A stretch of DNA of 54,222 nucleotides from Candidatus Bathyarchaeota archaeon (GCA_963827165.1 CAWGZR010000001.1:1-54222); one strand, 5' to 3'; numbered from the stretch's first letter, positions 20,798 through 54,221 are shown. A program made the numbers and translations. The notes: generated by a model not told the origin, from the letters alone.

Positions 20798-20809
20798 AGG
20801 AAATGCAAG

Positions 20810-23089: not shown

Positions 23090-23261
23090 ACGTCTTACCC
23101 CTGATTAGTTTATCTATATGATGGCTTTAGGAATTTTAATATATCGTAATACATTTCCGCCCGGGTGCCTTCGAAAGGTTCGCCTCTGATTTAAAACGAG
23201 GTTTGGCCTTCTCGATAGTATTAATTATGGACGTCAAAAAGATCTGTTGTTTTTGGGATTA

Positions 23262-34339: not shown

Positions 34340-34400
34340 AACAATCCATTCTTCCTTTCTTTCTTTTCATAATTTCTTTTTTTATGGATTTTTGAAGTTT

Positions 34401-34447
34401 GTGAATTGTTGCCAGGAGGGGATTCTATTGCCCTTTACCAGTCAAAA
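34401..34447 (-). repeat. Degenerate tRNA-Ser att-like junction J9 (most distal recognised)
   Basis: GTGAATTGTTGCCAGGAGGGGATTCTATTGCCCTTTACCAGTCAAAA vs by-eye consensus GTAAATTGGCGCCGGGAGGGGGATCCAGCACCAATTTACCAGTAAAA. Confidence 0.65.
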
Positions 34448-34627
34448 TGATTCTCAAGCCATTTCTAAAACGTGCCGCCAAACATTCCCTGTTCAAAACC
34501 AACGTTAAACCGCTACGTGAACCTTTGGCAAGATTTATCAAAAATATTTTGTTTTGACCTGGCTCTATTTTGAATTGTTCTGTAGTAAAACAGAAAATTA
34601 TATATATTGTTCTGTAGCAGAACAATT

Positions 34628-35884
34628 ATGGAAAGCTCAAATATTTTCGAGGAATGGAACACATACGCATTGCGCAAGGTCCTCCTTCAGCGTAATGTGA
34701 ATCTGGATGCAATTGAGCGTAATTCAGAATCGAAGATAGTTGCCATCACAGGCATAAGACGCTGTGGCAAATCAAGCGTTTTAATGCTGCTGGCTCAGAA
34801 GCTGGCAAAAGAAGGAAAAGAGGTCTGTTATGTCAATGTTGAAGACAGTCGACTTGGGGCAGAAAAGAATGTTTTGGATCAGATTCTCAAGTGGTTTGGC
34901 GATGAGGGTTTCTTGTTACTTGATGAAATTACAAGTGCGAACGATTGGAGCGGTTGGCTAGCAAGAACACATGAACTTCTCAAGGGCAGACTACATCTAG
35001 TAGTGGGTTCTTCGCGTAGAAGTTTGGTTGTTCCTAGCAAGCCGTTGCGCGGTCGAATCCTTCCAATAGAGCTTTTTCCCCTCTCTTTCAAAGAGTTTTT
35101 GGTTTTCAAGCGCATAGAAGTTGAGAGCACCACAGTTGGCATAGGAAGATTGGAGCGTGCACTTTCCGAATATCTAACTTTCGGAGGTTTTCCAGAAGTC
35201 GTCCTAGCGGAAGATGCATTGGATAAAGTTCGAATTATTGACTCATACTTCAAGGACATTGTAGGTCTTGATGTCGCAGAGGTTTCGCATGAAGATCCCA
35301 CAACTGTCGCAACTTTTGGAAGATGCGTAATTCAGAGTACATACTTTTCTGCCTCAAAATGCCTTAACTTCTTTAAAAGTTTAGGTTACAAAATAGGTAA
35401 AGAGAAATTATTGCAGCTCGAAAAACACTCGGAAGCGGGGTACCTCTTCTTTTTTATCCCCGTGTTCTCGCATAGCCTCAAGGCTCGGTCCGCGTATCCC
35501 CGCAAAGCATACAATGGCGATGTTGGTTTCTCTTACGCTGCAACGGGAAAAACTGATTGGGGAAAGCTGTATGAAAACGCCGTGTTCCTTGAGCTTAAAA
35601 GAAGATTGAACGATCAAGAAATCTGTTACTGGAGAAACAAGGCTGGCGAAGAAGTTGATTTCTTGGTTAAGCGAGGAGGCGAGTTATATGAAGCGTACCA
35701 AGTGGTTTATGACCTGAGCAACGCCGCAACTGAGCGCAGAGAAGTGGAAGGGTTAATATCGTGTGTAAAAGAACTCAAACCCAATACTTCAGTTATAATC
35801 ACCAAAAATGTCTCGGAAACCCGAGAATTTGGCGATTGCATCGTAAAGTTTCAACCCCTTATTGATTGGCTTATGGAAGAATAA
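34628..35884 (+). CDS. AAA+ ATPase (COG1373 type) with DUF4143 domain
   Basis: GIRRCGKS, LLLDEI, YLTFGGFPE, LYENAVF, YWRNKAGEEVDF. Confidence 0.9.
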   Translation: MESSNIFEEWNTYALRKVLLQRNVNLDAIERNSESKIVAITGIRRCGKSSVLMLLAQKLAKEGKEVCYVNVEDSRLGAEKNVLDQILKWFGDEGFLLLDEITSANDWSGWLARTHELLKGRLHLVVGSSRRSLVVPSKPLRGRILPIELFPLSFKEFLVFKRIEVESTTVGIGRLERALSEYLTFGGFPEVVLAEDALDKVRIIDSYFKDIVGLDVAEVSHEDPTTVATFGRCVIQSTYFSASKCLNFFKSLGYKIGKEKLLQLEKHSEAGYLFFFIPVFSHSLKARSAYPRKAYNGDVGFSYAATGKTDWGKLYENAVFLELKRRLNDQEICYWRNKAGEEVDFLVKRGGELYEAYQVVYDLSNAATERREVEGLISCVKELKPNTSVIITKNVSETREFGDCIVKFQPLIDWLMEE

Positions 35885-35940
35885 AAAATCTCAACTGCTA
35901 TTGGAGCCAAGAGTGATATTTGCAATAAGCCATAATTATG

Positions 35941-36011
35941 ACTATTTAGCCCAAATAGCTTCAAAAAATGCTTATCAAATTGGCGAGGGGGAAACTAGCA
36001 CCAATTTAACC
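35941..36011 (-). repeat. tRNA-Ser att-like junction J8
   Basis: ACTATTTAGCCCAAATAGCTTCAAAAAATGCTT...AAATTGGCGAGGGGGAAACTAGCACCAATTTAACC; arm matches 47091-47124. Confidence 0.75.
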
Positions 36012-36132
36012 GTGAGACATTTTTTCTCTTTAAGATGCGGGCTCGATAGGATGAGCTTAAACTACTAGCAAATTCAAAGTTTAGCAAGTTAGCGCATGAT
36101 TCACATTAGTTACTTTCAAGCTTTGCTCCGAT

Positions 36133-36292
36133 TTAGAGAAGTTTGGAGAAGTCATCATATACTTTCTTCCTATGACCCATAAAAAGCACTGTTAATTGTT
36201 TTTGATCGGCGTTTATTTCTTAAGATAGCTCGGTAGTCCCTTGACCTTATCCTCCAAAATCTCAGGGATGCAACGTTTTTCCTGCTGTCCAT
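36133..36292 (-). pseudogene. RelE/ParE toxin C-terminal fragment with frameshift
   Basis: FWRIRSRDYRAI / EINADQKQLTVLFMGHRKKVYDDFSKLL*. Confidence 0.7.
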
Positions 36293-36595
36293 TGCTCTAT
36301 GAGTTTACGCTCAGCCACGGAGACGGCGGTCTAAATTACCTTCATTTTACATCAAGCATGTTTAATGTTACATTCAGATGATTTAAGTTTTTTCCAGCAA
36401 ACTGAATTTAAAAGTTCGCTTGCAGTGAACCTCCGTTCTTAGCTCCAACGAATAATTTGAAACATTTTCTAAGAGTTTCATTATATTTTTTCTATTCAAA
36501 ACTTGGAAGATCAAACGCACAGCTAAGCAAAAATCATTTTGCAATACGTCAATTTAATAAGAACCTCTATACAGTTATGATTTTAGGCATTTCAT

Positions 36596-36811
36596 ATGAA
36601 AATCGGTGTTACTGTACACAAAGAAGGAAAATTGTATGTTGCAGCTGATCCGGTCACCGGCGTTACTAGTCAAGGGAAAACTTGTGATGAGGCTTTGGCG
36701 AATTTCCAAGAGGCCTTTGGGCTTTGGTTTGAATGCGCGGAAGATTGGGAGAAGGAACGGGCATTGAATGGCGCGCCAGTGGCTACCTTGGTTTTGGATT
36801 TAAAAATTTAG
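36596..36811 (+). CDS. hicB: HicB-family antitoxin
   Basis: YVAADPVTGVTSQGKTCDEALANFQEA. Confidence 0.85.
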   Translation: MKIGVTVHKEGKLYVAADPVTGVTSQGKTCDEALANFQEAFGLWFECAEDWEKERALNGAPVATLVLDLKI

Positions 36812-37038
36812 TTTCCAACGAATTTGAGAAATTCTTCATCTGTGATCCCTGCTTGAAACAAAATGCCTTTTAGCGTTCCAATGGCGATCTCTTCGTGCTT
36901 TGGAACTATGACGGTTCTTATTTTTCCATTGTAGAAGCCTTTTAGAACTATATGGCTTCCTCGTTGTCTGACGATTTGAAAGCCAAATTTACTTAAGGTC
37001 TTAATCACTTTTCGATGTGAGTACGGCTTCATCCTCAA
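36808..37038 (-). CDS. hicA: HicA-family toxin, convergent with hicB
   Basis: GFQIVRQRGSHIVL...VIVPKHEEIAIGTLKGILFQAGI. Confidence 0.9.
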   Translation of the reverse strand: MRMKPYSHRKVIKTLSKFGFQIVRQRGSHIVLKGFYNGKIRTVIVPKHEEIAIGTLKGILFQAGITDEEFLKFVGN

Positions 37039-37238
37039 GTGAATTCACTACTATTCAGTTCAAAATGCTAACAGAAATAACTTGCCCTATGTAAGAAGCT
37101 GTGTTCTAAAATGGATGCAGAGACATCAGACCGGGGTTGCGCTAAAAATTGAGTAAGGTTGTCAAAAACTTGACTATCTATAGGCGTATCGGCAAAAAGC
37201 GACTCCCCGATTTGCCAAGAGTTCTGGTCATCCGTCAT

Positions 37239-39014
37239 CTATTGCTTTTGTTCATCAAGGGCTTTTTGGTCGAGATAGTATTTTCCGTTGATTTCCTTGA
37301 AGACTTTTGTTTGTCCTTTGCGTTTTTCCATAACTCTCACGAACATTCGTGATAGTCCCAGTTCACTGGCGGTTAGCGCTGTTTCTGGGCTTAGCGCTCC
37401 CTTCTCTTGGAAAGTTTTGATGTTTTGCCGCACTCTCTCTCCGCTCCAAACTTGCTCCTCAGATGATTCCTGTTGACTTGATTGCGAAGACTCCATCTGA
37501 GCGGTTTGTGCGGCGACTGGAACTGAGTTTTGCTGCTGGGTTTGTGTAATTGGTGTTTGAGATTGTTGAGTCGTATTGTCTGAGTTGCTTGCGATGTCGC
37601 CTTTTGTCATTCGTGTTGATGAGTTATTTCCTTGAGTTTCAGACGCACTTGGTTCTAGTTTAACAGTGTATTGTGTTTTGTTTTTCACTGAAATAGATAC
37701 GGGCATTGAAGGCTTATAGCCTGTGGCATTGGCTTTTATTGAGTAGTCTCCTTTTTTCGGGTTTTTGAAAACGATTTGTCCGTTGTCTTTTGTGGTTCCA
37801 GTCAAGTTTTCTGGGCCTTCAGCTGAAACATTGGCTGCAAGAATGGGTGAAAGCGTTTGTGAGTTTTGTACGGTGATTACGAGTTTTCTTTGGCGACTGT
37901 ACCATAAGAGGAGGATGAGGATTAGCACAACTATGATGATTATGACTATGATTATCCAGGTGACCCCTGCGGTGGATGAGCTGGGGGGATTAGAAGCGGT
38001 TGGGCCTGAAGACGTAGATGTTGAAGGACCCGAAATAACTGACACGGTGCCCCCTGCGCCATTAGCAACATATATTGCGCCATTGCCTGGATCGTAAGTT
38101 CCTACCCAAGGCGAATTGCCTACAGTTATGGTTTGAACCACTTTGTTATCGCTGTCTGATATAACTGCAACTTCGCTGTTTTGGTGAAGGGCTACGAATA
38201 CTTGTCCAAGTGCAGGATCGTAAATTAACCCTTCAACTTGCACTTCGTCGTTCAAGTTTGAAATAGTAGCAACAACCGCATAATTGCTATCCGAAATAAC
38301 CGTGACGACAGCCCCGTACAAACCGACACCGGTGGATACGAATATTTCGTTTTTCTCCGAATCGTAGGCTAAAAATGAGGGGGGACCCGGAATAGCCACG
38401 GTTGCAACTACTGTATTAGCGCTATCAGAAATTACTGAAAGAGAATAGTTTCTTGTGTCAGTGCTAAGATCGACTACGAATATCTCGCTTTTGCCAGAAT
38501 CGTAGGCGATGCTAAAAGGTTCGCTTCCTACCCGGATAGTTGCTATGACCGTGTTTGTGCTGTCTGAAATTACTGAGACAGTGCTGTCATATTGATTGGT
38601 TACAAATAATTCGTCTTTGCTAGAATCATAGGCTATATTATAGGGGGATTCTCCCACAGGTATTGTAGCAATTACAGTGTTGGTGCTATCAGAAATAACC
38701 GAGACGCTATTACTATACAGGTTGACTACGAATATCTCGCTTAGTTGGGAGTCATAAGCTACACCGTATGGGTAGCCTCCGACTGGTATGGTTGCTATCA
38801 CGGTGTTTGTGCTGTCTGATATGACTGAGGTTGTGTTGTCTTGACCGTTGGCTACGAATATTTCGCCTTTGGCGGAATCGTAAGCTGCGCCTGATGGAGC
38901 GTTTCCGACAGGAATTGTTGCGGTTACGCTTAAGGCGTGAACATTGTTAACTGCTGAGAAAACAAAAATTGCAATAAATAACAAAACTAATAGATTCCAA
39001 GCTTTAGTTTTCAC
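37239..39014 (-). CDS. YVTN/YncE beta-propeller surface protein with TM, carboxypeptidase-regulatory-like domain and C-terminal wHTH-like domain
   Basis: About seven ATIPVG..P...AYDS...EIFV.N....VSVISD repeats; GTG start after GGAGAGGGAG. Confidence 0.85.
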   Translation of the reverse strand: MKTKAWNLLVLLFIAIFVFSAVNNVHALSVTATIPVGNAPSGAAYDSAKGEIFVANGQDNTTSVISDSTNTVIATIPVGGYPYGVAYDSQLSEIFVVNLYSNSVSVISDSTNTVIATIPVGESPYNIAYDSSKDELFVTNQYDSTVSVISDSTNTVIATIRVGSEPFSIAYDSGKSEIFVVDLSTDTRNYSLSVISDSANTVVATVAIPGPPSFLAYDSEKNEIFVSTGVGLYGAVVTVISDSNYAVVATISNLNDEVQVEGLIYDPALGQVFVALHQNSEVAVISDSDNKVVQTITVGNSPWVGTYDPGNGAIYVANGAGGTVSVISGPSTSTSSGPTASNPPSSSTAGVTWIIIVIIIIVVLILILLLWYSRQRKLVITVQNSQTLSPILAANVSAEGPENLTGTTKDNGQIVFKNPKKGDYSIKANATGYKPSMPVSISVKNKTQYTVKLEPSASETQGNNSSTRMTKGDIASNSDNTTQQSQTPITQTQQQNSVPVAAQTAQMESSQSSQQESSEEQVWSGERVRQNIKTFQEKGALSPETALTASELGLSRMFVRVMEKRKGQTKVFKEINGKYYLDQKALDEQKQ

Positions 39015-39084
39015 TGAAATCTCCCTCTCCTTCTTAGGCGGATATTTCAAGGAAGATTTAAGGCTTATGCTTGCTCGCTTGGGG

Positions 39085-40121
39085 TATCTTTTCCTGAAAT
39101 TATTTCCGCTTTCGTTTTAACGTGTTTCATGGTTTTTCACCATTTGAATAATTCTTTTGCTTGCCACATCCAACATTCCGGCGGTAACTTTCTGATAAAT
39201 GCTTGATTAGGAGTCTCTGCATAATGCATGTTAAGGCTTCCATGCATCCGATTATTATACCATCCAAGCAGCTCAGATAAAGAGCCATATCTGCCACGAT
39301 GATGCTCATAGAAATCAAACCATTTCTCAACTTTACCATTAGTCTGAGGATGATTCACCCCACAAAGTATCTGCTTGACTCCCTCTGACTTGAGAAAGTT
39401 CTCAAACACATGATCAGCTAAACCATGCTTATCTCTTCTCTCACCATAAAACTGGCTACCGTGATCGCTTATACATTCTCTAATACTGATATTGTAATTT
39501 GATCTACATCGCAGCAACGCCTCTCTTAGCAATAAAACAGAGTTTTCAGCGGTTGCATTGCTAAATTCTCCACCTGATAGAATCTTTCTTGAAGCATCAT
39601 CTAGAACAACGCATACTTGCTTTCCATGAACTGCCTTGCTGATATGCCAGTCCATATGGACAGCTGAGAGTGAATGTTCTCGTTCATAGCGAATCCATGG
39701 TTTCCGTCGTTTCTGTTTATTCTCCTGTTCACTCGCATAACCCTTCGCAAGCATAATCTTATGTATAGTGTTATGGGGTATTCTCTGTTTCTGTTCAATA
39801 TCGATTATCGTTTCCAAATAGAGAGCGTTCAAGTGGTGGCTTTGCCATTCATCGATTATGGTTTGTTCTTGTTGATCTGAGATTTTGGCTGTTGGCCTTC
39901 CAACGTTTGATCCTACAGTGGGAATGGTTTTTGTTTTCTTGTAGATTCGGTAGATTTGTCTAAACCGTCTTGACGTAACTCCCAGATACTCTGAAAGCCA
40001 TGATTGTGTTGCCTTTCCTTCTTCAAATTGCTTAATGCACCATCGGAGTTTCTTGTGATCTCTAAGTTTAGCCATGCAAGCCTTTGGTTTTAAATAGAGG
40101 AAATAATTTTGGGAAAAGATA
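39085..40121 (-). mobile_element. IS481-family insertion sequence (1037 bp) with 23-bp TIRs and 15-bp TSD
   Basis: TIRs TATCTTTTCCTGAAATTATTTCC and revcomp TATCTTTTCCCAAAATTATTTCC (21/23); CTTGCTCGCTTGGGG at 39070-39084 and 40122-40136. Confidence 0.9.
39137..40075 (-). CDS. DDE (rve) transposase, IS481 family
   Basis: N-terminal HTH; RYEREHSLSAVHMDWH, VLDDASR, SDHGSQF, HPQTNGKVEKWF. Confidence 0.92.
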   Translation of the reverse strand: MAKLRDHKKLRWCIKQFEEGKATQSWLSEYLGVTSRRFRQIYRIYKKTKTIPTVGSNVGRPTAKISDQQEQTIIDEWQSHHLNALYLETIIDIEQKQRIPHNTIHKIMLAKGYASEQENKQKRRKPWIRYEREHSLSAVHMDWHISKAVHGKQVCVVLDDASRKILSGGEFSNATAENSVLLLREALLRCRSNYNISIRECISDHGSQFYGERRDKHGLADHVFENFLKSEGVKQILCGVNHPQTNGKVEKWFDFYEHHRGRYGSLSELLGWYNNRMHGSLNMHYAETPNQAFIRKLPPECWMWQAKELFKW

Positions 40122-40216
40122 CTTGCTCGCTTGGGGCATAATTGTCTTAAAGCACGAAAACTTTAGATGCAAAAATTTATTAGAAGCTGTGCGAGACGTT
40201 ATCATAAGTGATTTTT

Positions 40217-40588
40217 GTGAAAATTGTAGATAAGATAATTCTGACTCATCTCCTTGTGCGTGACATGAATAAGGCAAAAGCATTCTATACTGATGTGTTG
40301 GGCTTTGAATCAACCCAAGACACCGAGTGGGGAAAAGGAAACCGCGGAGTCTTCGTCGTTCCTCCTGGCGGCGGCACATACATTGCTCTTGATTTCATGT
40401 CCGAACAAAAAGAGTTCGATACTGCGAGAAACTTTATTATTTCAACACCGGATGTCGAAGCAGCGTACAAGGCAATTAAAGCAAAGGGCGTTAAGCCAAA
40501 CAGCGAGATCATGCCTTACCCACCTGGCGGCAGATTCTTCAGCGTCAATGATCCCGATGGCAATGTCTGGAACATTCTGCAATCATAG
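40217..40588 (+). CDS. VOC/glyoxalase family protein
   Basis: VRDMNKAKAFYTDVLGF...DVEAAY...FSVNDPDGN. Confidence 0.9.
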   Translation: MKIVDKIILTHLLVRDMNKAKAFYTDVLGFESTQDTEWGKGNRGVFVVPPGGGTYIALDFMSEQKEFDTARNFIISTPDVEAAYKAIKAKGVKPNSEIMPYPPGGRFFSVNDPDGNVWNILQS

Positions 40589-40672
40589 AAGCTTGTGGAT
40601 TCCTTAATCAATCAATCAGTTAATCTTTCAACCAGGCAAAATGGGGTCACACCCGCAGAGAAATACTGGGTG

Positions 40673-40996
40673 TTAGACCCGAACGGGCAGCACCTCACGA
40701 ATCTCCACTGAACCCTCATTCTCGAAAATCGGACATGCTTTAAGCTTTGAAGCAGCACTGTCTTAGTTGTCAGCCTCTATCACTATGTATCCTCCGAGTA
40801 ACGAGTCACTAAACTCGACACTCGACACGTTTGCGCCGTTTTTGCCTAAGATTATCCTGCCTTCCGGCTTAGGCCTGTTTCCAAGCCGCAAGTCTTTTGA
40901 GACATACTTGGCCCAATTTGCAAAGCGTTTTATATAATCATCAGTTAATTTCTCTTTGGGAAATCCACCGCGGAATAAAACGACATAAGTGTTCAT
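40673..40996 (-). pseudogene. YCII-family protein with in-frame stop at 40763-40765, possibly a sequencing error
   Basis: GGYIVIEADN*DSAASKLKACPIFENEGSVEIRE continues in frame to the stop at 40673. Confidence 0.75.
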
Positions 40997-41054
40997 TGAA
41001 AACCAGCATCCAAAGCTTATTTATTATTGTGCAAATAAATAGATATTGATAAAG

Positions 41055-41468
41055 ATGCCACAAAATAAGGCGGTTAATGATGCGTCTCGACTGATAGATG
41101 CGAGAATCAAGGAGTTAGCCGATTGGCGTGGAGAGATGCTTTCGCACCTCCGTGCGTTGATTAAGCAAGCCGACCCTGAGGTCGTGGAGGAAGTTAAGTG
41201 GGTAAAGCCGTCCAATCCGCTTGGTGTTGCGGTTTGGTCTCATAACGGTTTGATCTGTACCGGCGAGGTCTATAAGAATGCTGTAAAGATGACATTCCCA
41301 AGCGGTGCCTCGTTGGATGACCCTTCAGTTCTCTTCAATTCCTGTCTTGAGGGTAGCGCTAGGCGTGCCATCGACTTCCACGAAGGTGACAAGGTTAACG
41401 AGGAAGCTATGAAAACGCTTATTCGCGCCGCCGTGGCCCTAAACACGTCTTCGGCGACAGCTAAGTAA
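41055..41468 (+). CDS. DUF1801 (YdhG-like) protein
   Basis: IDARIKELADWRG...ADPEVVEEVKW...FNSCLEG..RRAIDF. Confidence 0.88.
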   Translation: MPQNKAVNDASRLIDARIKELADWRGEMLSHLRALIKQADPEVVEEVKWVKPSNPLGVAVWSHNGLICTGEVYKNAVKMTFPSGASLDDPSVLFNSCLEGSARRAIDFHEGDKVNEEAMKTLIRAAVALNTSSATAK

Positions 41469-41706
41469 GGAATTCTACCTCGGTTACTTCGTCGTTGTGT
41501 TCTCTTGAATTCCAGCAGGGGGCAGGATTCCAAGAAGAACTAAAGCGGCGCCCAAGACCTCAAGCAGCATTCAAGCAACATAATTCTTAATGGAAGATAT
41601 ACAAAAGTTAAATTCCTGTTTTACCTAATTGGATATCCGGCAGATATTTTCAGAGAATCAATTAACAAAATACTTCTCCGTAAAAACCCCATTATTTTTG
41701 CTCATA

Positions 41707-41733
41707 ATGGTGCCGGGGGGGGGGACTTGAACG
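41707..41733 (-). repeat. tRNA 3'-end remnant J7
   Basis: Reverse strand reads GTTCAAGT, a C run, then GGCACCA (T loop to CCA). Confidence 0.7.
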
Positions 41734-41852
41734 CTCACTCTAATGGAGACTTCGCCCGCTTCTCTTTTTTTTAACCATTATTTGTCCATTCGTCTTTTTG
41801 GATGAGAGTTATATTGAAGTTGAGACACTGAATTTAAGGCAGATGAGTTCAA

Positions 41853-42542
41853 TTGGGCAAGACCCGCCTTAGCGTAACCAAACAAGCGGTCATAGGTTTA
41901 GCGGCGCTTACAATTGTGTTGTGGGTGATCTTGTTTGTACCTGCTGGGACGCTTAATTATTGGCAAGCATGGATTTTTTGGCTCATTTTTGTCTTCTGCA
42001 TTTTGATAGTTAGCGCCTATTTCCTACAAAAAGACCTTACGCTTATCGCGGGTCGGCTAAAAGTTGGGGCTACGGCGGAACAAGACCGCATCCAACGATT
42101 AACACAAGTTGTCATCAGCGTTTTTTTCATTTTGCTGCTATTGGTTCCTTCTATTGACCATCGTTTTCAATGGTCCATCGTACCCTCAACTTTGAGTTTA
42201 GTAGCTGATGCTTTCGTTGGGTTTGGGCTTCTCATTATTTTTTTGGTCTTCAAAGAGAACACATACACCTCAGTTCTTGTCGAAGTCAAAGAAGGACAAA
42301 AAGTCATATCCACAGGTCCGTACAGCAAAGTACGGCATCCCATGTATTCGGGAGCCCTATTAATGCTGCTCTTCATACCTCTTGCCTTGGGTTCGTATTG
42401 GGGATTGCTTGCGTTTCCGCCAATATTGGCAGCAATCGCAGTGCGGAGTATAGCAGAAGAAAGGTTTTTGGCGAAAGATTTACAGGGTTACAATGAATAC
42501 CGCGAAAAGGTTCGTTACCGCTTAGTTCCGTATGTTTGGTAA
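41853..42542 (+). CDS. Isoprenylcysteine carboxyl methyltransferase family membrane protein
   Basis: KVISTGPYSKVRHPMYSG, EERFL..L.GYNEYREKVRYRLVPYVW. Confidence 0.9.
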   Translation: MGKTRLSVTKQAVIGLAALTIVLWVILFVPAGTLNYWQAWIFWLIFVFCILIVSAYFLQKDLTLIAGRLKVGATAEQDRIQRLTQVVISVFFILLLLVPSIDHRFQWSIVPSTLSLVADAFVGFGLLIIFLVFKENTYTSVLVEVKEGQKVISTGPYSKVRHPMYSGALLMLLFIPLALGSYWGLLAFPPILAAIAVRSIAEERFLAKDLQGYNEYREKVRYRLVPYVW

Positions 42543-42645
42543 GGTAAATATTAGGGTTTCATCCACCCACAAAGAAAGTCGTCTTTTATTGCCCAAAGTT
42601 ATCTTAAAACTATCAAAACGTCAAGAATTAAGTTAAACTCAAATC

Positions 42646-42700
42646 CTCTGGCAATTCAGGTAGGGGAATGCTTTGAACCCACGTTTAGACTTCACGCAAA
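42646..42700 (-). repeat. Degenerate junction J6
   Basis: TTTGAACCCACGTTTAGACTTCACGCAA matches J1 TTTAAACCCACGTTTAAATTGCACGCAA. Confidence 0.65.
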
Positions 42701-42744
42701 AACATTTCTTGCATGGCGTTGTTAAAGCATTTACCTCTCGCAAG

Positions 42745-43108
42745 CTATACCAAACACACGTCTTTTAATGCCTTAAGATCGTTATCGCTCGTGTAGAATT
42801 TGGCCTTCCAATGGCGAGCAGTGGCATAAACAAGAGCGTCTGCAAAGTGTAGGTTATGTTCAAGGCTGTAGTCTGCTGCCTCAAGGGAGATTGATTGGTC
42901 GACTGGCGCAATCGTCGTCTGGCTGAGAGCGGCAACTGCCAGTAAAGCTTCTTCTTCACCCTTTACTTTCTTAATTTTTTTGTAGATTTCGTAGAGTACG
43001 ACAACTGAAGTGACTATCTCTTTAGGCTGCGTTGATTCAATTATCTGTTTGTATTGTCGCGCCTTTGGTAAGCTGTTCAATCCATCCAAAACTGTCTATG
43101 CTAATCAA
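42745..43108 (-). pseudogene. vapC: PIN (VapC) toxin frameshifted near its N-terminus
   Basis: TTG 43108 gives MISIDSFGWIEQLT (catalytic Asp), but the remainder (PKARQYK...HFADALVYA...YTSD) is in another frame. Confidence 0.8.
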
Positions 43109-43313
43109 TTCTGTCAGACTCGTCTCGCAAGCCTTTTGTATCAAGTCCGGGGATAAATCCTTCTGTTTCTTTTATGGGACGAACAGGTATGTACTGGATA
43201 ATTCCATGTTTAGTGATGGCAACCATCTTGTCTCCTGGTTTGATTCCCGATTGCTTGCGTAGTTTCTCGGGGATAACCACCTGATATTTCTTCGATACAA
43301 TAACTGTTTCCAT
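43101..43313 (-). CDS. AbrB/MazE-family antitoxin
   Basis: VSKKYQVVIPEKLRKQSGIKPGD. Confidence 0.9.
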   Translation of the reverse strand: METVIVSKKYQVVIPEKLRKQSGIKPGDKMVAITKHGIIQYIPVRPIKETEGFIPGLDTKGLRDESDRID

Positions 43314-43442
43314 CGATCATCAACTGGTAATACGAATACTAAATCGATGATAAAAAAACATTGTTGCACTCGCGTATGCGAACCTCGGCGCAAATTATGT
43401 TTAATTGCGCTAATTTGTTCAGAAAAACTGAAAGTACTTTGA

Positions 43443-43481
43443 TTGGTAAATTGGCGTCGGGAAGGACACTAGCACCAATTT
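43443..43481 (-). repeat. tRNA-Ser att-like junction J5
   Basis: TTGGTAAATTGGCGTCGGGAAGGACACTAGCACCAATTT. Confidence 0.8.
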
Positions 43482-43614
43482 GTTGTGAAAATCGTTGGAG
43501 TAGTCCAATAAATTTTCATGCCACTTCTATTGACGCTAGCGTCGTAAACTTTACCAGTAAAAAACTCAGCTGGTTTAACTCGCTTTTCAAGGTTAAAGAT
43601 TGCTTTGAAATAAG

Positions 43615-43875
43615 TTACTTGTACACATTGTCATGGTGCTCGTACCTCCTAATCGTGACTACTTTTCTTTCCTCATCTATGTCGTAGACAAGAACGAAGG
43701 ACCCAACATGTACACGGCGCATGTGCTGCATGGGACTCTTCAACGGCTTGAATTGTTGAGGATTTTCCAAAATCTTATCCACCTTCTTTGAGACTGCTTC
43801 AAACTGCATTGAATCTTTCTTTCGCAGCTTCTTGAATGTTCTATCTACTTTTTCAACCACTTCTAAAGAATACAA
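43615..43875 (-). CDS. relE: RelE/ParE/YafQ-family mRNA interferase toxin
   Basis: ILENPQQFKPL...RRVHVGSFVLVY...YEHHDNVY. Confidence 0.85.
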   Translation of the reverse strand: MYSLEVVEKVDRTFKKLRKKDSMQFEAVSKKVDKILENPQQFKPLKSPMQHMRRVHVGSFVLVYDIDEERKVVTIRRYEHHDNVYK

Positions 43876-43879
43876 ATAA

Positions 43880-44110
43880 TCACTTGGAGTATCTCTGGGT
43901 GAAGTTGTTGACTTTTACAGTTTTTTCACTTTGAGAATGTTTTAGGCTTTCTATGAACTCTGGTCTTAACTCGGGCTCCATAACGCACTCTTCAAACTGT
44001 TTTGCCATCAAGTTTATGGCTTGGCTCTTGTCTCTGAGCCCGTATTTGGCTTTGAGTATGTTTAGTATCCGGTTGGTCCTGTCGTCTATGGTCACTATGG
44101 CTTTTACCGT
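43880..44110 (-). CDS. Antitoxin (DUF2683-like); probable start position carries ACG
   Basis: (T)VKAIVTIDDRTNRILNILKAKYGLRDKSQAI...EPELRPEF; GGTGAT RBS precedes ACG at 44110; GTG at 44095 is the alternative. Confidence 0.75.
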   Translation of the reverse strand, partial: TVKAIVTIDDRTNRILNILKAKYGLRDKSQAINLMAKQFEECVMEPELRPEFIESLKHSQSEKTVKVNNFTQRYSK

Positions 44111-44219
44111 ATTATCACCACATTAATGCAATGTTAATCTGAAATATATAAAGTACTCCATAATATTTTCGAATTTTATTCGGGTTACCCAATCTGAAAT
44201 GATATGCGAATAGTCTGCT

Positions 44220-44312
44220 GTTGAGCTTATTTAGTAAATATAAGCCTAAAATAGATTCTAAATCGGCAAACGGCGTCGGGGGTTGATCCCAGCATCAATT
44301 TACCAGAAAAAA
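44220..44312 (-). repeat. tRNA-Ser att-like junction J4 with arm
   Basis: GTTGAGCTTATTTAGTAAATATAAGCC...GGCAAACGGCGTCGGGGGTTGATCCCAGCATCAATTTACCAGAAAAAA. Confidence 0.8.
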
Positions 44313-44343
44313 CTTGCGGACTATAGTAACAGGACAACTCAAG

Positions 44344-44787
44344 TTAGGGCTCAATGAAGGGATTTTGCGCCTTAATGAATCCATATTTATTGAAGTCTCT
44401 CACATTTTCGGTGTAAATGACGTCTATCTTGTTTGCTTTGGCAGAAACGGCTAAGATGCAATCAAAGACCTTGGAACCTGATAACCTCTTGCTCTTAACG
44501 AGGCTGAAAACTTCCCTAGGTACCGACTCGGAGGCAGCGATTTTCCCGAGTTCATCACATTCCCATAGATCGATGCATAACTCAGCGGCTATGTCAGGAG
44601 ACAAGGGCGATTCGACTCTCTTAGCGTTGGTGATGACAGCAAAAAACTCAAAAAGCACTTGCTGAGAAATACATGCTTCTATCTCCCCTGCCATCGCTCT
44701 TTCTATTATGCTGCTGGCAACCTTCTGGTTAGGAGATGCCTTGTTGTAAGCATGTACAAGGATGTTCGTATCAAGTAGTATCCTCAT
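44344..44787 (-). CDS. vapC: PIN-domain (VapC) toxin
   Basis: ILLDTNILVHA, QVLFEF, VFDCILA, IYTENVRDF. Confidence 0.92.
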   Translation of the reverse strand: MRILLDTNILVHAYNKASPNQKVASSIIERAMAGEIEACISQQVLFEFFAVITNAKRVESPLSPDIAAELCIDLWECDELGKIAASESVPREVFSLVKSKRLSGSKVFDCILAVSAKANKIDVIYTENVRDFNKYGFIKAQNPFIEP

Positions 44788-45013
44788 AAATCTCTTCCCT
44801 AGAAAGGCGCCCTTTTATCCGGCCAAGGTTAGGCGGGTTTTCGAGCATTTCACGAGCTAGCTTTGCCTTACGGCATCCTCGGACTACACTGAGTTTGGCA
44901 ACCCCCTTTTTTACAACTTCAATGCGTAATACGTCGCCATCTACTAGACCAAGTTTTTCCCTGACGCCTTTGGGCAAGTAGACTTTGTCCTCGTAGAAAG
45001 TAGTTTCAGCCAT
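44771..45013 (-). CDS. AbrB/MazE-family antitoxin
   Basis: KVYLPKGVREKLGLVDGD...LSREEIYED; overlaps the PIN start. Confidence 0.85.
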   Translation of the reverse strand: MAETTFYEDKVYLPKGVREKLGLVDGDVLRIEVVKKGVAKLSVVRGCRKAKLAREMLENPPNLGRIKGRLSREEIYEDTT

Positions 45014-45136
45014 ATCAACACTGGTTACCCAGTGAATTGGGCAAAATATAAACTTTGCCAGCACCATGCTTTCCATGCTGATTTGCCTTCTGAGGCTTAA
45101 AAGCTACCTGAAAATTTGAATGAACTTTGAATATGT

Positions 45137-45216
45137 CTATTTAGTCAAAATAAGCTCATGACTATCCGATTTTGTAAAATGGCGCCGGGAGGGGGATCCA
45201 GCACCAATTTACTCGT
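45137..45216 (-). repeat. tRNA-Ser att-like junction J3 with arm
   Basis: CTATTTAGTCAAAATAAGC...GTAAAATGGCGCCGGGAGGGGGATCCAGCACCAATTTAC; 18 nt identical to the tRNA-Ser 3' end including CCA. Confidence 0.9.
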
Positions 45217-45345
45217 AAATACTGGCAACGGTTGCCCGTCTCCAAATCAAGTGAGCAAAACCTCTTTTCTTCCTATCTCGGCATGAAGAGACATTCATAT
45301 TTCTTAGGCCGTGGGCGAGCCAAACTCAAAATGCCCTAGAAATTC

Positions 45346-45744
45346 CTAAATCCAGTTTCTTTTCGTTTCTTTTATTGAATCAAAATGGGGGTCGTCTGAT
45401 AAGATGATTGCCTGGTTGGCTATGGCTGTTGCGGCAATTATGCAGTCGCCCATTGGTACATTTCGATATTTGCTTCTTAGAAGACCAGCTTGTTTGGCTA
45501 TTGGTGCGCTTAAGCTTTGGATTTTCAATCCGCTTTGGGTTAAGTTTGCATAGCAGATTTCTGCCTCTTCTTTTCCGATTTGTCCGCAGACTGTTTGAAT
45601 CGTTTCGCTGATAACGATTGTGGGCAGTATGCCTTCTTTACGCTGGATTATTTCTTTTAGCCTTTTTGTGGCGTTTTGCTTGGTTTCAGGGATATCCGAA
45701 TAGAAATACTCCATGACGAATCTGCTGTCAAGGACCGTTCGCAA
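45346..45744 (-). CDS. vapC: PIN-domain (VapC) toxin
   Basis: TVLDSRF, ISE, PMGDCIIAATA, ILSDDPHF. Confidence 0.92.
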   Translation of the reverse strand: MRTVLDSRFVMEYFYSDIPETKQNATKRLKEIIQRKEGILPTIVISETIQTVCGQIGKEEAEICYANLTQSGLKIQSLSAPIAKQAGLLRSKYRNVPMGDCIIAATAIANQAIILSDDPHFDSIKETKRNWI

Positions 45745-45747
45745 GCT

Positions 45748-45978
45748 TTAATATTCCTCTCTGAGCTTATCTATCTGCCTTTTCATTTCTTCTGGTTTTG
45801 CGTATTTCGAGTAAATACCTGCGCAGTCTTCCAGTTTTCTGATTGGCGTAAAAATTACTTGACCATGCTCGGTTGTTTCGACCAAAAGTTTGTCGCCTTC
45901 CTTTATTACGAGTTTTTGCCTGACTTCTATTGGTATGGTTGTTTGTCCTTTTCGGGTAACCTTTACAACGGTTGTCAT
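45748..45978 (-). CDS. AbrB/MazE-family antitoxin
   Basis: VKVTRKGQTTIPIEVRQKLVIKEGD. Confidence 0.9.
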   Translation of the reverse strand: MTTVVKVTRKGQTTIPIEVRQKLVIKEGDKLLVETTEHGQVIFTPIRKLEDCAGIYSKYAKPEEMKRQIDKLREEY

Positions 45979-46145
45979 TTGTAATCTCAACGAAAGAAGG
46001 CAATAGTACTTTAAAACTATTGTCCTACTTCAAATGCAAAGTACTGCTAAATTTTGTGAAGTGAGAAATTATTATTAAGCGCGCTGAAGAAAAACGCCAA
46101 TAAGCCAACAATTCACCTTATTTGGAATGAAAATGCCAAATTCAG

Positions 46146-46200
46146 CTCTATCAGTAATTTGGCGCCGGGAGTGGATCCAAGCACCATTTTACCAGTAAAA
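46146..46200 (-). repeat. tRNA-Ser att-like junction J2
   Basis: CTCTATCAGTAATTTGGCGCCGGGAGTGGATCCAAGCACCATTTTACCAGTAAAA. Confidence 0.85.
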
Positions 46201-46244
46201 ACATTTTTGACGTCACCACTAATATGCAATCAACTATCAACACA

Positions 46245-46269
46245 GGTTCAAGTCCCAGCGGTCCCACCC
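46245..46269 (+). repeat. 3'-end remnant of a different tRNA, in opposite orientation
   Basis: GGTTCAAGTCCCAGCGGTCCCACC: T loop, T stem and acceptor-like strand. Confidence 0.6.
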
Positions 46270-46337
46270 CAAGCTTGCTTTGAAAAGAACTGCAATAGAG
46301 CGCTCATTCTGTCATAGATTATTTCAAAAAGCTTATC

Positions 46338-46353
46338 TGTGTACGTGTACACA
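46338..46353. promoter_or_regulatory. Palindromic operator upstream of vapB
   Basis: TGTGTAC-GT-GTACACA, 10 bp before ATG 46364. Confidence 0.5.
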
Positions 46354-46363
46354 TACATGAAAC

Positions 46364-46600
46364 ATGGGCACAAAGACCATATCAATAAAAGATGAGGCGT
46401 ACGAAGCTTTACTCCGTGAGAAGGCAGACAAAGAGAGCTTCACAGAAACTATCTTGCGCATAACCAAAAAGTCTGGCAAAATAGCAGATTGCTTTGGAAC
46501 CTGGAATATGACTGACGAAGAGGAAGAAGCCATTCGAATCGAACTTTCCAAGGGCTGGCACACAATTCAGGAGAGAATCTCAAATGAAATGTCTAGATAG
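46364..46600 (+). CDS. vapB: VapB antitoxin (DUF217/UPF0330 type)
   Basis: MGTKTISIKDEAYEAL...KESFTETILR. Confidence 0.88.
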   Translation: MGTKTISIKDEAYEALLREKADKESFTETILRITKKSGKIADCFGTWNMTDEEEEAIRIELSKGWHTIQERISNEMSR

Positions 46601-46976
46601 TGACTTGCTCGTCGCCATCTTGCGCGGCAAGGAAGACGCGCGAACAATAGTTGATGCGTTAGATGAAGACTCTAGAGGAGCAACAACATCTGTTAATGCC
46701 TTCGAAGTTTATTTTGGCGCAAACAAATCGGCGAAGAAGGATGGAAACGTAAAGGAAGCCTCCAAACTGCTCGAAAGGCTAACAGTTTTTCCATTAGACC
46801 TAAGTTCTTCGCGAAAGGCGGCTGAAATATCCGCGAAACTGATGGGGAAAGGCGAAACAATAGACTTCAGGGACGCCATGATCGCAGCAATTTCTGTGGA
46901 AAACGGCTTGACGCTGGTTACACGTAATATTTCCCACTTTAAGAGAATAAAAGACTTGAAGACCGAAAAATGGTGA
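46584..46976 (+). CDS. vapC: PIN-domain (VapC) toxin
   Basis: CLDSDLLV, FEVYFG, DAMIAA, LVTRNISHF. Confidence 0.92.
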   Translation: MKCLDSDLLVAILRGKEDARTIVDALDEDSRGATTSVNAFEVYFGANKSAKKDGNVKEASKLLERLTVFPLDLSSSRKAAEISAKLMGKGETIDFRDAMIAAISVENGLTLVTRNISHFKRIKDLKTEKW

Positions 46977-47090
46977 TGGTTTGCATGCAAAATTTTGGGG
47001 TCAAATCCACAGGTCCGCTATTTGATTATTCTTATCAGTAAAAGTTTTCGCCGTGATTTTAGAAATTTTGACAAATAAGCAATTATTGCG

Positions 47091-47174
47091 ACTATTTAGC
47101 TAAAATAACCCTAGAAAAATGCTTGAAAAAAGGCGCCGGGAGTAGGTTTAAACCCACGTTTAAATTGCACGCAA
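47091..47174 (-). repeat. tRNA-Ser att-like junction J1 with arm
   Basis: ACTATTTAGCTAAAATAACCCTAGAAAAATGCT...GGCGCCGGGAGTAGGTTTAAACCCAC vs tRNA flank TAGCTAAAATAACCTCAAAAATGCT...GGCGCCGGGAGGGGGATTTGAACCCCC. Confidence 0.9.
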
Positions 47175-47403
47175 GGTTCTGGGCATCAAGAGAAATACTA
47201 GGAGCGCGTGTGGCAACTACCTTAGATCCTTTGGTATACGGCAGGTTTTCATAATGAGCAGCGGAGTTGGCTAAAAAACAAAAGAGCGTGCTTACCCGGC
47301 TAATCCCGTAATGCCCACTCGTTTGTCCCATGCAAAGCTTGTCGAAAGCATAAAGAAAATTAATCAGGAGTCAGCTGGGGTCTGCTGGTTGGACATTCCG
47401 AAT

Positions 47404-49038
47404 CTACTGCTGGGAATGTAACTCTTTCACCCATGCTAAGAGCTCGTCGGAGAGTTCTTCCTTCGCGATGACTGCCTCAATCAGTGAGAATTCCTTGTTG
47501 CCATGAGCTTCTTCCAGCGACCTGTAAAGCGTGTCGCAGTTGTCGCAGTAGTAGCCTTTTCCTCCCCAGAGTTCGGCTATCCTCGCATAGGGCCAATTCA
47601 CAAGTTCATTAAACCGGGCAGTCGGGTAGAACAGCTGTTGCATTCCCCAACGGCTGTTGTTGAAGACTATGAAAATTGGGTTTATACCGTAGCGAGGGCA
47701 ATGGCAGATCTCTTGACCCGTCATCTGGAAGCCTCCATCGCCGAGCAGAACTAGCGGGCGCTTCCCAGTGGAGACGGCGTAACCAATGGCGGCTGGAGTT
47801 CCGAAGCCCATGGATGCATAGTACGGATCAGCAATGACCGAAGGCGCCTCGATCTTGGTCGTCACGAACAGGCAGTCTCCCGTATCAGAAACGATAGGCA
47901 TCTCACCGTACTTGTCGAAGAACCAGTTTATGGCGTCAACTATCTCCTTCACGGTGACCACTCTTTCCTTTTCGTATTTGCATGCCCTGTTAAGTATCAA
48001 TTCTAGCTTGGCTGGGAACTGGAGGTTTTTCCTCTGAAGGTTCCTGCCTAAGAGATCTTCAACTAAGGGTCTAAGTGGGACCTCGTCGTACTGGTGGTGT
48101 CCCATAACAACTTTCCTCGAAAGGCAGAGAATAAGGTTTTCTTTCTTCAACTTCTTCAAGCGTAGTCCGAGATTCATGTCAGCGAGAATCGTGCCAAGCA
48201 TGAGGAGGCAATCCGAGTTCTCGACGAGTTCCTGCGCAACGGGATTTCCCGCCGTGCCCAAATAGGTGCCAAAGTAGTAGGGCTCGTCTCTGGGCATGAC
48301 GTCTCGACCAAGGAAATCCGATACGATCGGCACTCCAAGCCTCTTAGCCAACGTCAGGGCAGACTCGTTCATTCTGAATCGATCGACCTCAACCCCGACA
48401 ATGATGAGCGGCGAGTTGGCTGCTGAGAATCTGCGCAGGATTTCGTCTGCCGCTTCTCTGATTGCGCCCTCGTCCGGCCTGAAAGCCTGCATCTCTTGCT
48501 CAGGGACAGTTATTTCCTTGTCGACCATATCGCGGGGGATTTCTATGTAGACCGGAAGCGAAAATTCCTGACAAGCTTTCATAGCATGAAGGATTCTTGC
48601 GCAGGCAGTTGTTGGGCTGTCCAGAACGACGGCTTCCTTCGTTAATTCCTTGAAGACATTAAGCTGCGAATCGAAGTCCTTGACCATGTGGTGCAAGAAG
48701 GCGTCCTTTATCTTCTCGCCTTCGCCTGGCCCACCGGAAATGACGATGAGCGGGGTTTTCTCCGCGTAGGCACAGGCTACCGAGTTCACCATGTTGAGTC
48801 CGCCTGCACCATACGTGATGCATGCTACAGCGGGTTTGCCTGTCGCTTTTGCTGCAGCGACTGCGGCGAAGCCGACGCCCGGTTCATGGGAGAACGTGTA
48901 CAGCTTCAAGTCGGAGTCGTCTTCAATGACTTTGAAGAATCTGATGACCATGTCTCCAGGGATGCCGAAGACAGATTTCGCGCCTGCGTCTTTCACCGCT
49001 TGAAGCAGGAACTCGCCTATTGTGAGTTTGCCTGTCAT
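47404..49038 (-). CDS. ipdC: ThDP-dependent indolepyruvate/phenylpyruvate decarboxylase
   Basis: VFGIPGD, SHEPGVGFAA, TYGAGGLN, LHH, SDTGDCLF, YYASMGFG, GDGGFQMTG...NN. Confidence 0.88.
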   Translation of the reverse strand: MTGKLTIGEFLLQAVKDAGAKSVFGIPGDMVIRFFKVIEDDSDLKLYTFSHEPGVGFAAVAAAKATGKPAVACITYGAGGLNMVNSVACAYAEKTPLIVISGGPGEGEKIKDAFLHHMVKDFDSQLNVFKELTKEAVVLDSPTTACARILHAMKACQEFSLPVYIEIPRDMVDKEITVPEQEMQAFRPDEGAIREAADEILRRFSAANSPLIIVGVEVDRFRMNESALTLAKRLGVPIVSDFLGRDVMPRDEPYYFGTYLGTAGNPVAQELVENSDCLLMLGTILADMNLGLRLKKLKKENLILCLSRKVVMGHHQYDEVPLRPLVEDLLGRNLQRKNLQFPAKLELILNRACKYEKERVVTVKEIVDAINWFFDKYGEMPIVSDTGDCLFVTTKIEAPSVIADPYYASMGFGTPAAIGYAVSTGKRPLVLLGDGGFQMTGQEICHCPRYGINPIFIVFNNSRWGMQQLFYPTARFNELVNWPYARIAELWGGKGYYCDNCDTLYRSLEEAHGNKEFSLIEAVIAKEELSDELLAWVKELHSQQ

Positions 49039-49338
49039 AAATGAGCCTAAAAGAATGAGGGATTGGAAAGCTAATAAACCTATGTAGAGACGGGTTGTGC
49101 ACAAGCAGGCGGCAAGAAGCCTAAGAACACTGGTCTCCGGCCAATATAGTAGGTTCCGCGGGAAGTTTTGTCACGCACTAACTCAGTTGGTCTGGATGTT
49201 TTGCGAAATTGACTGAAGCATTTAATCACAACGAAGGCTGCGTACATCGACAGAAAAACAAATCGAATCGGCAAACTAATATGAACGAAGTTGAGCTTTA
49301 TAGCTAAAATAACCTCAAAAATGCTCTATCTGGTAAAT

Positions 49339-49453
49339 TGGCGCCGGGAGGGGGATTTGAACCCCCGCGGCCCCGAGAGGCCACAAGCTGCTTGGTGCTT
49401 GCCTTAGGCAAACATCTCCAGGCTTGCTCCCTGCCTGGCTAGGATACCCCGGC
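49339..49453 (-). tRNA. tRNA-Ser(GGA) with 26-nt canonical 37/38 intron (49390-49415) and encoded CCA
   Basis: GCCGGGG...CAAGC CT GGA G[intron]A GCTTG, long variable arm, GGTTCAAATCC, TCCCGGC G CCA; BHB motif with one C-A mismatch. Confidence 0.95.
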
Positions 49454-54120: not shown

Positions 54121-54221
54121 GGGCGAGTAAAGAGAGAATAAAACTCTTTCTCGAAGCTCAGTACGGATAGAGCACCAGCCTCCTAAGTTGGGGGTCGAGG
54201 GTTCAAATCCCTCCCCGCCCG
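54121..54221 (+). tRNA. tRNA-Arg(CCT) with 26-nt non-canonical intron at position 9/10 (54130-54155)
   Basis: Spliced: GGGCGAG TA GCTC AGTACGGATA GAGC A CCAGC CT CCT AA GTTGG GGGTC GAGGG TTCAAAT CCCTC CCCGCCC G; complete BHB motif. Confidence 0.9.

Follow-up and report, generated by a model that had tools for sequence, protein, structure and literature searches.

Integrative mobile elements exploiting Xer (IMEX) lack an integrase, depend on a recombinase that is encoded outside the element and can build up tandem arrays at a single chromosomal site. Here, we describe a comparable locus in a soil archaeon, located on a stretch of 54,222 nucleotides from Candidatus Bathyarchaeota archaeon (GCA_963827165.1, CAWGZR010000001.1:1-54222; hereafter, the window), which is the whole of contig C1 (54 kb) of a 3.13-Mb, 14-contig genome (G000). 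Downstream of its tRNA-Ser(GGA) gene, the 3' end of the tRNA recurs with conserved arms and separates small integrase-less units, mostly toxin-antitoxin pairs, which probably constitute a tandem array of non-autonomous cassettes integrated at the tRNA 3' end by site-specific recombination, with the recombinase provided in trans. As in IMEX, integrase-less units stand in tandem at one site and the recombinase would come from elsewhere; however, IMEX integrate at dif through a dif-like site, whereas here the place of dif is taken by a tRNA 3' end with long arms. Little is known of gene exchange among Bathyarchaeia, which are abundant and uncultured.

Cis-mobilizable elements (CIMEs), as characterized in sections of PMC5704250, have attachment (att) sites at both ends but no integration genes; they occur in tandem at the 3' end of a target gene, such as a tRNA gene, and are expected to move only with the recombinase of another element. 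They are described as bacterial conjugative or mobilizable elements that have decayed, generally of several kb and present once or twice per site. The array shares with CIMEs (ICESt1/ICESt3 of Streptococcus thermophilus and related cases) the tandem arrangement of att-bounded, integrase-less units at a tRNA: attL- and attR-type sites, as used in site-specific recombination, delimit the units, which in the window carry neither integration nor transfer genes. It differs in having up to nine units in a row, six of them of 0.8-1.0 kb with one operon each, in belonging to an archaeon, and in arms without detectable relation to the integrase-bearing elements of the genus. The first-pass annotation of this DNA had started from the premise that tandem units at tRNAs are normally multi-kb elements with their own integrase, which overlooks CIMEs and IMEX, both integrase-less by definition.

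In the genomic islands of Prochlorococcus, according to parts of the report on tycheposons (10.1101/2020.12.28.424599), successive integration at tRNA genes pushes older elements inward and leaves partial tRNAs and niche-related cargo. All three features, successive tRNA-gene integration, partial tRNAs and niche-related cargo, are common to both systems. However, tycheposons are described there as carrying their own integrase and often replication genes, and the integrase-less island material as degenerated fragments without clear boundaries (10.1101/2020.12.28.424599), whereas the units of the array have sharp boundaries and conserved arms, and no tyrosine or large serine recombinase of their own.

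The array is also reminiscent of integrons and of clusters of attC sites lacking an integron integrase (CALIN), with which it shares a fixed chromosomal entry point and small, mostly co-oriented, recombinase-less cassettes that often encode toxin-antitoxin pairs and are exchangeable between lineages. The sites themselves are different. Whereas attC hairpins are conserved in structure, the junctions are conserved in sequence as double-strand sites around a tRNA 3' end, with long asymmetric arms in each unit, and no IntI gene beside an attI site was found on the contig. The word Bathyarchaeia is absent from the main text of the paper on archaeal integrons (10.1101/2022.02.06.479319), and a literature search of articles without their supplementary files returned no description of such arrays in Bathyarchaeia.

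Junctions and cargo of the array

The tRNA-Ser(GGA) gene that anchors the array has a 26-nt intron. It was called by ARAGORN when introns were allowed, having been missed by the default ARAGORN run and by an Rfam scan of the window, and the complete tRNA is legible at 49339-49453 by direct reading of the sequence. Of 120 genomes of the genus, 107 have the same tRNA. The core shared by the junctions is formed by the terminal 18 nt of this tRNA, ATCCCCCTCCCGGCGCCA. The layout of a unit is P' arm (50 to >200 nt), cargo and P arm, with one tRNA-end core of ~18 nt between neighbours; at an internal junction, the P arm of one unit meets, across the core, the P' arm of the unit that follows it away from the tRNA. 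A consensus built from 64 distinct junctions of G000 and related genomes reads, in the direction of the tRNA, as a P arm (TTTTTACTGGTAAATTGG followed by a degenerate copy of the T arm, GGGGCTnnnAT), the exact tRNA end CCCCCTCCCGGCGCCA, and a P' arm, AtTTTACCAGTTAGRGC...TTTTTGAGnTTATTTTGnCTAAATA.... Listed from the tRNA outwards, with cargo assigned by Pfam and with the arm types (A and B for P, 1 and 2 for P') treated below, the features of the array are as follows.

49339-49453, minus strand: tRNA-Ser(GGA) with 26-nt intron, the array anchor (ARAGORN, introns allowed: c[49339,49453])
49288-49338, minus strand: P' arm adjoining the tRNA, AATTTACCAGATAGAGCATTTTTGAGGTTATTTTAGC..., the left arm of unit 1 (sequence, alignment and profile)
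47149-49287, minus strand: unit 1 (2.2 kb), thiamine pyrophosphate (TPP)-dependent enzyme, 47404-49104
47077-47176, minus strand: junction 47132, core 14/17, then a 110-nt type-1 P' arm (core count and profile)
46206-47076, plus strand: unit 2 (0.97 kb), VapB, 46364-46600, and PIN, 46584-46976; opposite to the tRNA
46106-46205, minus strand: junction 46161, type-A P arm (profile)
45226-46105, minus strand: unit 3 (0.98 kb), MazE/AbrB antitoxin, 45748-45990, and PIN, 45346-45744
45126-45225, minus strand: junction 45181, exact 17-nt core, the best-preserved site (core count and profile)
44317-45125, minus strand: unit 4 (0.91 kb), AbrB-type antitoxin (AbrB/MazE), 44771-45076, and PIN, 44344-44787
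44217-44316, minus strand: junction 44272 (profile)
43498-44216, minus strand: unit 5 (0.82 kb), DUF2683 antitoxin-like protein, 43880-44095, and ParE/RelE toxin, 43615-43875
43398-43497, minus strand: junction 43453 (profile; 84% identical over 114 nt to C13:7440-7552)
42706-43397, minus strand: unit 6 (0.79 kb), MazE/AbrB antitoxin, 43101-43313, and PIN, 42745-43089
42640-42705, minus strand: junction 42660 (weak), type-B arm like that of 47132, core decayed (28 nt at 86%)
41761-42639, plus strand: unit 7 (0.95 kb), PEMT/ICMT-family methyltransferase, 41853-42542
41682-41760, minus strand: junction 41709 (weak), longer tRNA-like 3' fragment (E 0.11 in the window)
36027-41681, no strand assigned: 5.7-kb mixed block
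35927-36026, minus strand: junction 35982, type-A P arm, type-1 P' arm, core with a 4-nt deletion (profile)
34452-35926, plus strand: last unit, AAA_14-DUF4143 ATPase, 34607-35884
34400-34451, minus strand: terminal site 34408 (weak), P arm, core-like 13/17, no P' arm (E 0.2 with both profiles)

The recurrence of the tRNA 3' end with conserved arms, always in the orientation of the tRNA, had been read from the sequence in the first-pass annotation and was reproduced here: every site shares that orientation, and the spacings came out at 2208, 971, 980, 909, 819, 793 and 951 bp, as had been given. Six sites are strong, and three (42660, 41709 and 34408) are weak. The 17-nt core GGCGCCGGGAGGGGGAT is matched perfectly at 49340 and 45181, and with 3 mismatches at 47132; these 3 matches compare with 0.03 expected, and none of 100 shuffles reached 3. 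As found with a repeat finder and by alignment, the repeat is far longer than the core and consists of the distal-side arm, the core and the tRNA-side arm. A profile of the whole junction recovered 47132, 46161, 45181, 44272, 43453 and 35982 in a genome-wide scan at E values of 1e-15 to 1e-23, which are not independent, these six strong sites being the training set; a copy outside the training set, at C9:6653-6752, scored E 5.6e-14. The junctions thus stand far above shuffled background. Outside the training set, the top right-strand matches within the window fall at two of the weak sites, 41709 (E 0.11) and 34408 (E 0.2). At 42660 there is no core match, and the site, missed by the junction profile, was recognized by a 28-nt arm 86% identical to that of 47132. 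Because no P' arm lies behind 34408, this site is likely the distal end of the array.

The type-B P arm is a longer tRNA-like fragment, found at 47132 and 42660 as well as at sites in G139 and G131; as the distal arm of unit 1, it includes a longer tRNA-like T-arm fragment at 47149-47175. Conservation of the P' arm extends over ~110 nt for type 1 (6 sites) and over 200 nt or more for type 2 (11 loci), where the genes that follow are unrelated. The possibility that the type-2 arm leads into a structured RNA or a conserved gene was considered and rejected, because the consensus fold reached only about -2 kcal/mol on either strand and no open reading frame (ORF) was shared behind the arm. Folded as single-stranded DNA and compared with shuffles, seven junctions gave z-scores of -2.35, -1.14, +1.18, -0.62, +0.50, -1.70 and -1.89, that is, no consistently better fold: four of the seven (-1.14 to +1.18) were no better than shuffles, and the other three ranged from -1.70 to -2.35. 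Accordingly, attC-like hairpins at the junctions were rejected.

The cargo agrees with what had been assigned from the sequence alone. Behind the tRNA stand 7 units of 0.8-2.2 kb, 5 of them in tRNA orientation, and the mixed block beyond them contains a DUF1801 gene (41046-41468), an insertion sequence (IS; 39070-40121), a gene for a beta-propeller protein (37239-39050) and HicB/HicA (36596-37038). The base composition of the array is unremarkable.

Spread and turnover of the cassettes among relatives

Relatives recovered through one gene family of G000 are titled as Candidatus Bathyarchaeia or Bathyarchaeota metagenome-assembled genomes (MAGs). A sequence-only covariance model of the junction matched in 62 of 101 related genomes, among them 48 of 60 from the same genus, and in 13 of the 28 genera sampled. 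The junctions usually form co-oriented arrays, which stand behind tRNA-Ser(GGA) in G016 (six junctions over 50 kb), G013, G048, G012, G105 and G131, and behind tRNA-Ser(CGA) in G029. Across 26 intervals in relatives, the median length is 2.3 kb and the maximum 19.8 kb; since 9 of the 26 measure 1.2 kb or less, small units are common across relatives, but the run of small units in the window is unusual. A census of 92 ORFs in the arrays of eight relatives yielded PIN domains (6), PAS/histidine kinases (4), response regulators (3) and single metabolic genes.

When the genus was searched with the array of the window, each cassette was found singly in other genomes. Unit 1 has a 92% identical copy with a junction beside it in G159 and an 85% identical copy in G002 (L076, G002:C4, 8775-10793). 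The latter immediately follows tRNA-Ala(CGC) and is bounded distally by a type-A P arm, and the TPP-enzyme cargo may sit in a different tRNA context in that genome. Copies of unit 2 are 90% identical in G102 and G044, those of unit 3 are 84-86% identical in at least 8 genomes, and those of unit 5 are 80-83% identical in G110 and G037. Unit 4 is flanked by junctions in G110; in G105, an 88% identical copy stands immediately next to tRNA-Ser(GGA). The G105 locus shows how homology between species breaks at the core: it aligns to the cassette of the window up to 45197 and to the tRNA of the window from 49323, and the overlap corresponds to the shared core and arm. In the G131 array, the second unit, which is flanked by junctions, is an 86% identical copy of unit 6; unit 7 has a counterpart in G125 with 92% identity over its whole length, from site to site (41705-42678); and in G122 the first unit after the tRNA is the beta-propeller gene of the mixed block. 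Gene order at the junctions thus differs among relatives, with cassettes at other positions of other arrays.

To quantify turnover next to the tRNA, we compared 28 tRNA-Ser(GGA) loci, 2 of 30 having been dropped (one without an exact core and one with a short flank). The 1.45 kb downstream of the tRNA aligned over >50% in only 2 of 756 ordered pairs, as against 224 of 756 for the syntenic upstream flank, and the downstream stretches fell into 24 clusters. The tRNA-proximal unit turns over fast and differs in nearly every species. Where a cassette could be set against the flanking FKBP gene, the cassette was the more similar in each genome: 92% versus 75.8% in G125, 86% versus 77.6% in G020, 86% versus 79.1% in G152, and 85% versus 80.9% in G019. 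Judged from sequence identity and from one baseline gene, this excess is consistent with lateral exchange.

Recombinases and competing explanations

Under the reading that we favour, a tyrosine recombinase encoded elsewhere, by a helper element or by the host, would excise a unit, yielding a small circle with a single P-core-P' site. Such circles would be inserted into the tRNA or into any existing junction, whereby units would pile up and be exchanged between lineages, and the toxin-antitoxin cargo would stabilize the array against loss. If units do move in this way, tRNA-Ser loci would be hot spots at which species acquire, lose and exchange single operons; toxin-antitoxin pairs, sensor kinases and metabolic genes are among the cargo observed. 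A further-reaching and more tentative possibility is an integron analogue of independent origin, in which the tRNA-Ser 3' end plays the part of attI and the double-strand P/P' pair that of attC, while an off-array recombinase of the host or a helper shuffles promoter-carrying cassettes of ~1 kb within arrays and between species, and toxin-antitoxin cassettes hold the array. Movement of the units by a recombinase in trans would, if it occurs, amount to a second route to integron-like arrays, through ordinary tRNA-targeted site-specific recombination, and would offer short, defined recombination sites and a candidate enzyme family for archaeal genetic tools.

In agreement with the earlier description of the units as discrete, att-bounded and devoid of an integrase, the profile PF00589 had 0 matches on C1, all 7 matches in the genome being on other contigs, and tblastn with two integrases of the genus found no match on C1 and none in six fetched tRNA-Ser(GGA) arrays. 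Neither search detected an integrase remnant on the contig of the window. Resolvase genes (C10) and a broken Cas1 (C4), the other recombinases of G000, are not close to the sites. In G029, by comparison, pieces of an integrase pseudogene lie behind two junctions. Their intact relatives are tyrosine recombinases of ~410-425 aa with an N-terminal zinc ribbon, and the ~420-aa family is present in 92 of 101 genomes of the genus. Of 80 loci of this family from public Bathyarchaeia MAGs, 60 have a tRNA gene no more than 400 bp from the 3' end of the integrase gene, nearly always in convergent orientation. The targets include tRNA-Cys(GCA) (16), Ser(CGA) (11), Leu(TAG) (6) and Ser(GGA) (2), and in the usual layout the integrase gene is convergent with the tRNA and 20-165 bp from its 3' end. 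At the tRNA-Ser(GGA) of the window this layout is absent, and the TPP-enzyme unit follows instead. The occurrence of the family in 92 of 101 genomes and its adjacency to tRNAs make it a plausible enzyme class for the cassette junctions. The best match of a genus integrase among PDB sequences was XerA, and IntI4 matched only over 48 residues, giving no sign of IntI identity; together with the folding of the junctions, this upholds the view that the array is not based on integron machinery.

None of the arrays examined holds an intact copy of the ~420-aa family. Within 1.5 kb of tRNA-Ser(GGA) in 29 relatives, the only traces were two short C-terminal integrase remnants, one of 20 aa behind the tRNA in G003 and one of 43 aa within the second unit of G139. 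Pfam searches of 10 ORFs in the 19.8-kb unit of G016 gave no recombinase, with five ORFs having no family, and no integrase was among the 25 families listed, of 108 matched, for the 92 ORFs in the arrays of eight relatives. PF16795-type recombinases, which occur in 39 of 101 genus genomes, received no support as helpers: none was noted beside an array, and at E 1e-5 they are missing from several array-rich genomes (G012, G013, G023, G028 and G031). The only intact integrase of the ~420-aa family in G000 (~410 aa; four broken copies exist besides) belongs to a 14.7-kb element at tRNA-Ala(TGC), C10:392660-407473, with exact 22-bp direct repeats at C10:392713 and C10:407452.

Several observations weigh against movement by such an enzyme. 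No cognate recombinase for the cassette junctions was found among the recombinases of the genus that were compared. The tRNA-Ala integrase found no support as a helper, the P arm of its element being unrelated to those of the cassettes. In G156 and G011, which have integrase-bearing elements of ~21 kb at Ser(CGA), the attR P arm of these elements differs from the cassette arm, so that the derivation of the type-A P arm from such elements was rejected. Profiles of both P' arm types gave nothing below E 0.19 in 88 integrase loci (553,181 bases), which also disposed of a likeness seen by eye between the P' arm and the 3' end of an integrase gene. In the best copies, the start of P' is an inverted repeat of the P-arm motif (ACTGGTAAATTGG / CCAATTTACCAGT); this inverted motif is kept in just 10 of 35 internal junctions, against 15 of 23 tRNA-adjacent or second-type sites. 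Selection, instead of transfer, could underlie the higher identity of the cassettes. The cores do not decay steadily along the array, the best one being that of the fourth site, 45181, and strict polar addition at the tRNA therefore lacks support. Of the integron-like accretion proposed in the first-pass annotation, the discrete, modular, integrase-less units and the fast proximal turnover hold, and the polarity of addition and the action of a recombinase in trans are putative; the stronger decay of distal sites holds only in part, given the core at 45181.

Activity was addressed with assembled contigs (Logan) of four public soil runs, bearing in mind that contigs drop rare variants. The contigs kept the cassette order of the window, with no joint skipping a cassette, and contained no excision product, circle or empty site. 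This result, too, points away from movement, but it is weak because contigs hide rare variants; the contigs neither support nor exclude excision. They break at the junctions, with ends at 41690/41757, 42727/42783, 46284, 47132 and 49360. The array of G000 may be currently inactive.

The main rival to cassettes moved by a recombinase in trans is decay, whereby the units are leftovers of larger integrase-bearing tRNA elements after deletion of the integrase and other genes, and species differ by differential loss. Precedents exist in CIMEs and in the island debris of tycheposons, as presented in portions of the respective reports (PMC5704250; 10.1101/2020.12.28.424599), and the integrase pseudogene remnants directly behind the G029 junctions, the short remnants in G003 and G139 and the multi-kb units of the relatives are what decay would leave. 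However, the six consecutive units of 0.8-1.0 kb, each with one operon and both arms, would require many independent and equally precise deletions, whereas the same compact units recur with the same boundaries at other positions in other species, and short intervals are also frequent in relatives (9 of 26). Moreover, the contig of the window is free of integrase remnants, its P' arms bear no detectable likeness to the 88 integrase loci, and the P arms of the Ser(CGA) elements are unlike those of the cassettes; the intervals of the window were thus not found to be remnants of integrase-bearing elements. We regard decay as unlikely, while giving it more weight than any of the explanations that follow.

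A non-mobile origin of the repeats, as a dispersed regulatory or repetitive extragenic palindrome (REP)-like motif or as the end of an IS that resembles a tRNA end, would account for the P-arm-only copies scattered over C3, C7, C9 and C13, three of which lie 50-150 bp from copies of one IS (487-aa transposase). The motif is, however, outside the IS and inconsistently oriented to it, so that the copies were rejected as IS ends; furthermore, the junctions contain an exact 17-18-nt tRNA 3' end, homology between species breaks at the core, and arrays begin at tRNA-Ser genes in at least 7 genomes, all of which makes this origin very improbable. Slightly more remote still is an integron remnant of the CALIN kind reported in Archaea, which would match the ~1-kb, toxin-antitoxin-rich and mostly co-oriented cassettes without an adjacent integrase and, according to part of 10.1101/2022.02.06.479319, represents the commonest archaeal integron form, but is contradicted by junctions that are conserved in primary sequence, contain the tRNA 3' end and fold mostly like shuffles, and by genus integrases that match XerA better than IntI4.

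Other sites and variable regions of the genome

Besides the array, G000 carries a complete junction at C9:6653-6752. Its core is exact, and its type-2 P' arm, of >170 nt, shares 80-85% identity with arms found in 9 or more other genomes. Because the site is 6.7 kb from the start of its contig, its tRNA may be on another contig. The dispersed type-A P arms (GGATCCCAGCACCAWTTTACCAGTAAAAA on the plus strand of the window), with a decayed core and no P' arm, are located at C3:146062, C3:137988, C7:48894, C9:11050, C9:25392, C9:146754, C13:7510, C13:11051 and C13:23925. On C7, the copy is found 5.3 kb downstream of tRNA-Ser(GCT), and the two are oriented to each other as P arm and tRNA are in the window. 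This distribution suggests that the dispersed copies are old attR sites at other tRNA-Ser genes. A 20-nt P-arm pattern had 0 matches in viral contigs.

The variable region may reach beyond 34408, because a homologue of C1:14010-14955 stands behind tRNA-Ser(GGA) in G138. Closer to the start of the window, at 3624-3691, ARAGORN called a tRNA-Pro(TGG) of 68 nt, the 3' end of which is unlike that of the full tRNA-Pro(TGG) of C5, and an AbrB/PIN-like pair lies just upstream of it, at 2939-3507. The short tRNA may be a displaced fragment marking another integration site. More PIN pairs are present at 8802-9507. The sole tRNA match in the Rfam scan of the window was at 54153-54214 (42.6 bits), at the very end of the contig, where ARAGORN made no call; C7 and C8 likewise end near tRNA-Ser(GCT) genes. 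Contigs of the G000 assembly tend to break preferentially at tRNA-linked variable regions, and the junction model provides a simple means of mapping such flexible islands in MAGs, whose contigs tend to break there.

The IS in the mixed block (39070-40121, ~1.05 kb) encodes an rve-family transposase (39137-40075) and a 103-aa ORF and is flanked by imperfect direct repeats of 33 nt (39067-39099 and 40119-40151). It is a recent, polymorphic insertion, since a contig of soil run X1 lacks it and joins 39069 to 40122. The neighbouring 603-aa beta-propeller/CarboxypepD_reg gene contains at least 5 tandem repeat units of ~126-138 nt at 38128-38886, and related repeat genes are found on C13, C5, C11, C3 and C9. 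Finally, the region 15469-29373 of the window holds a gene cluster marked by signal peptides like those of archaeal type IV pilins; an 1818-aa protein and a KaiC-like ATPase are among its products.

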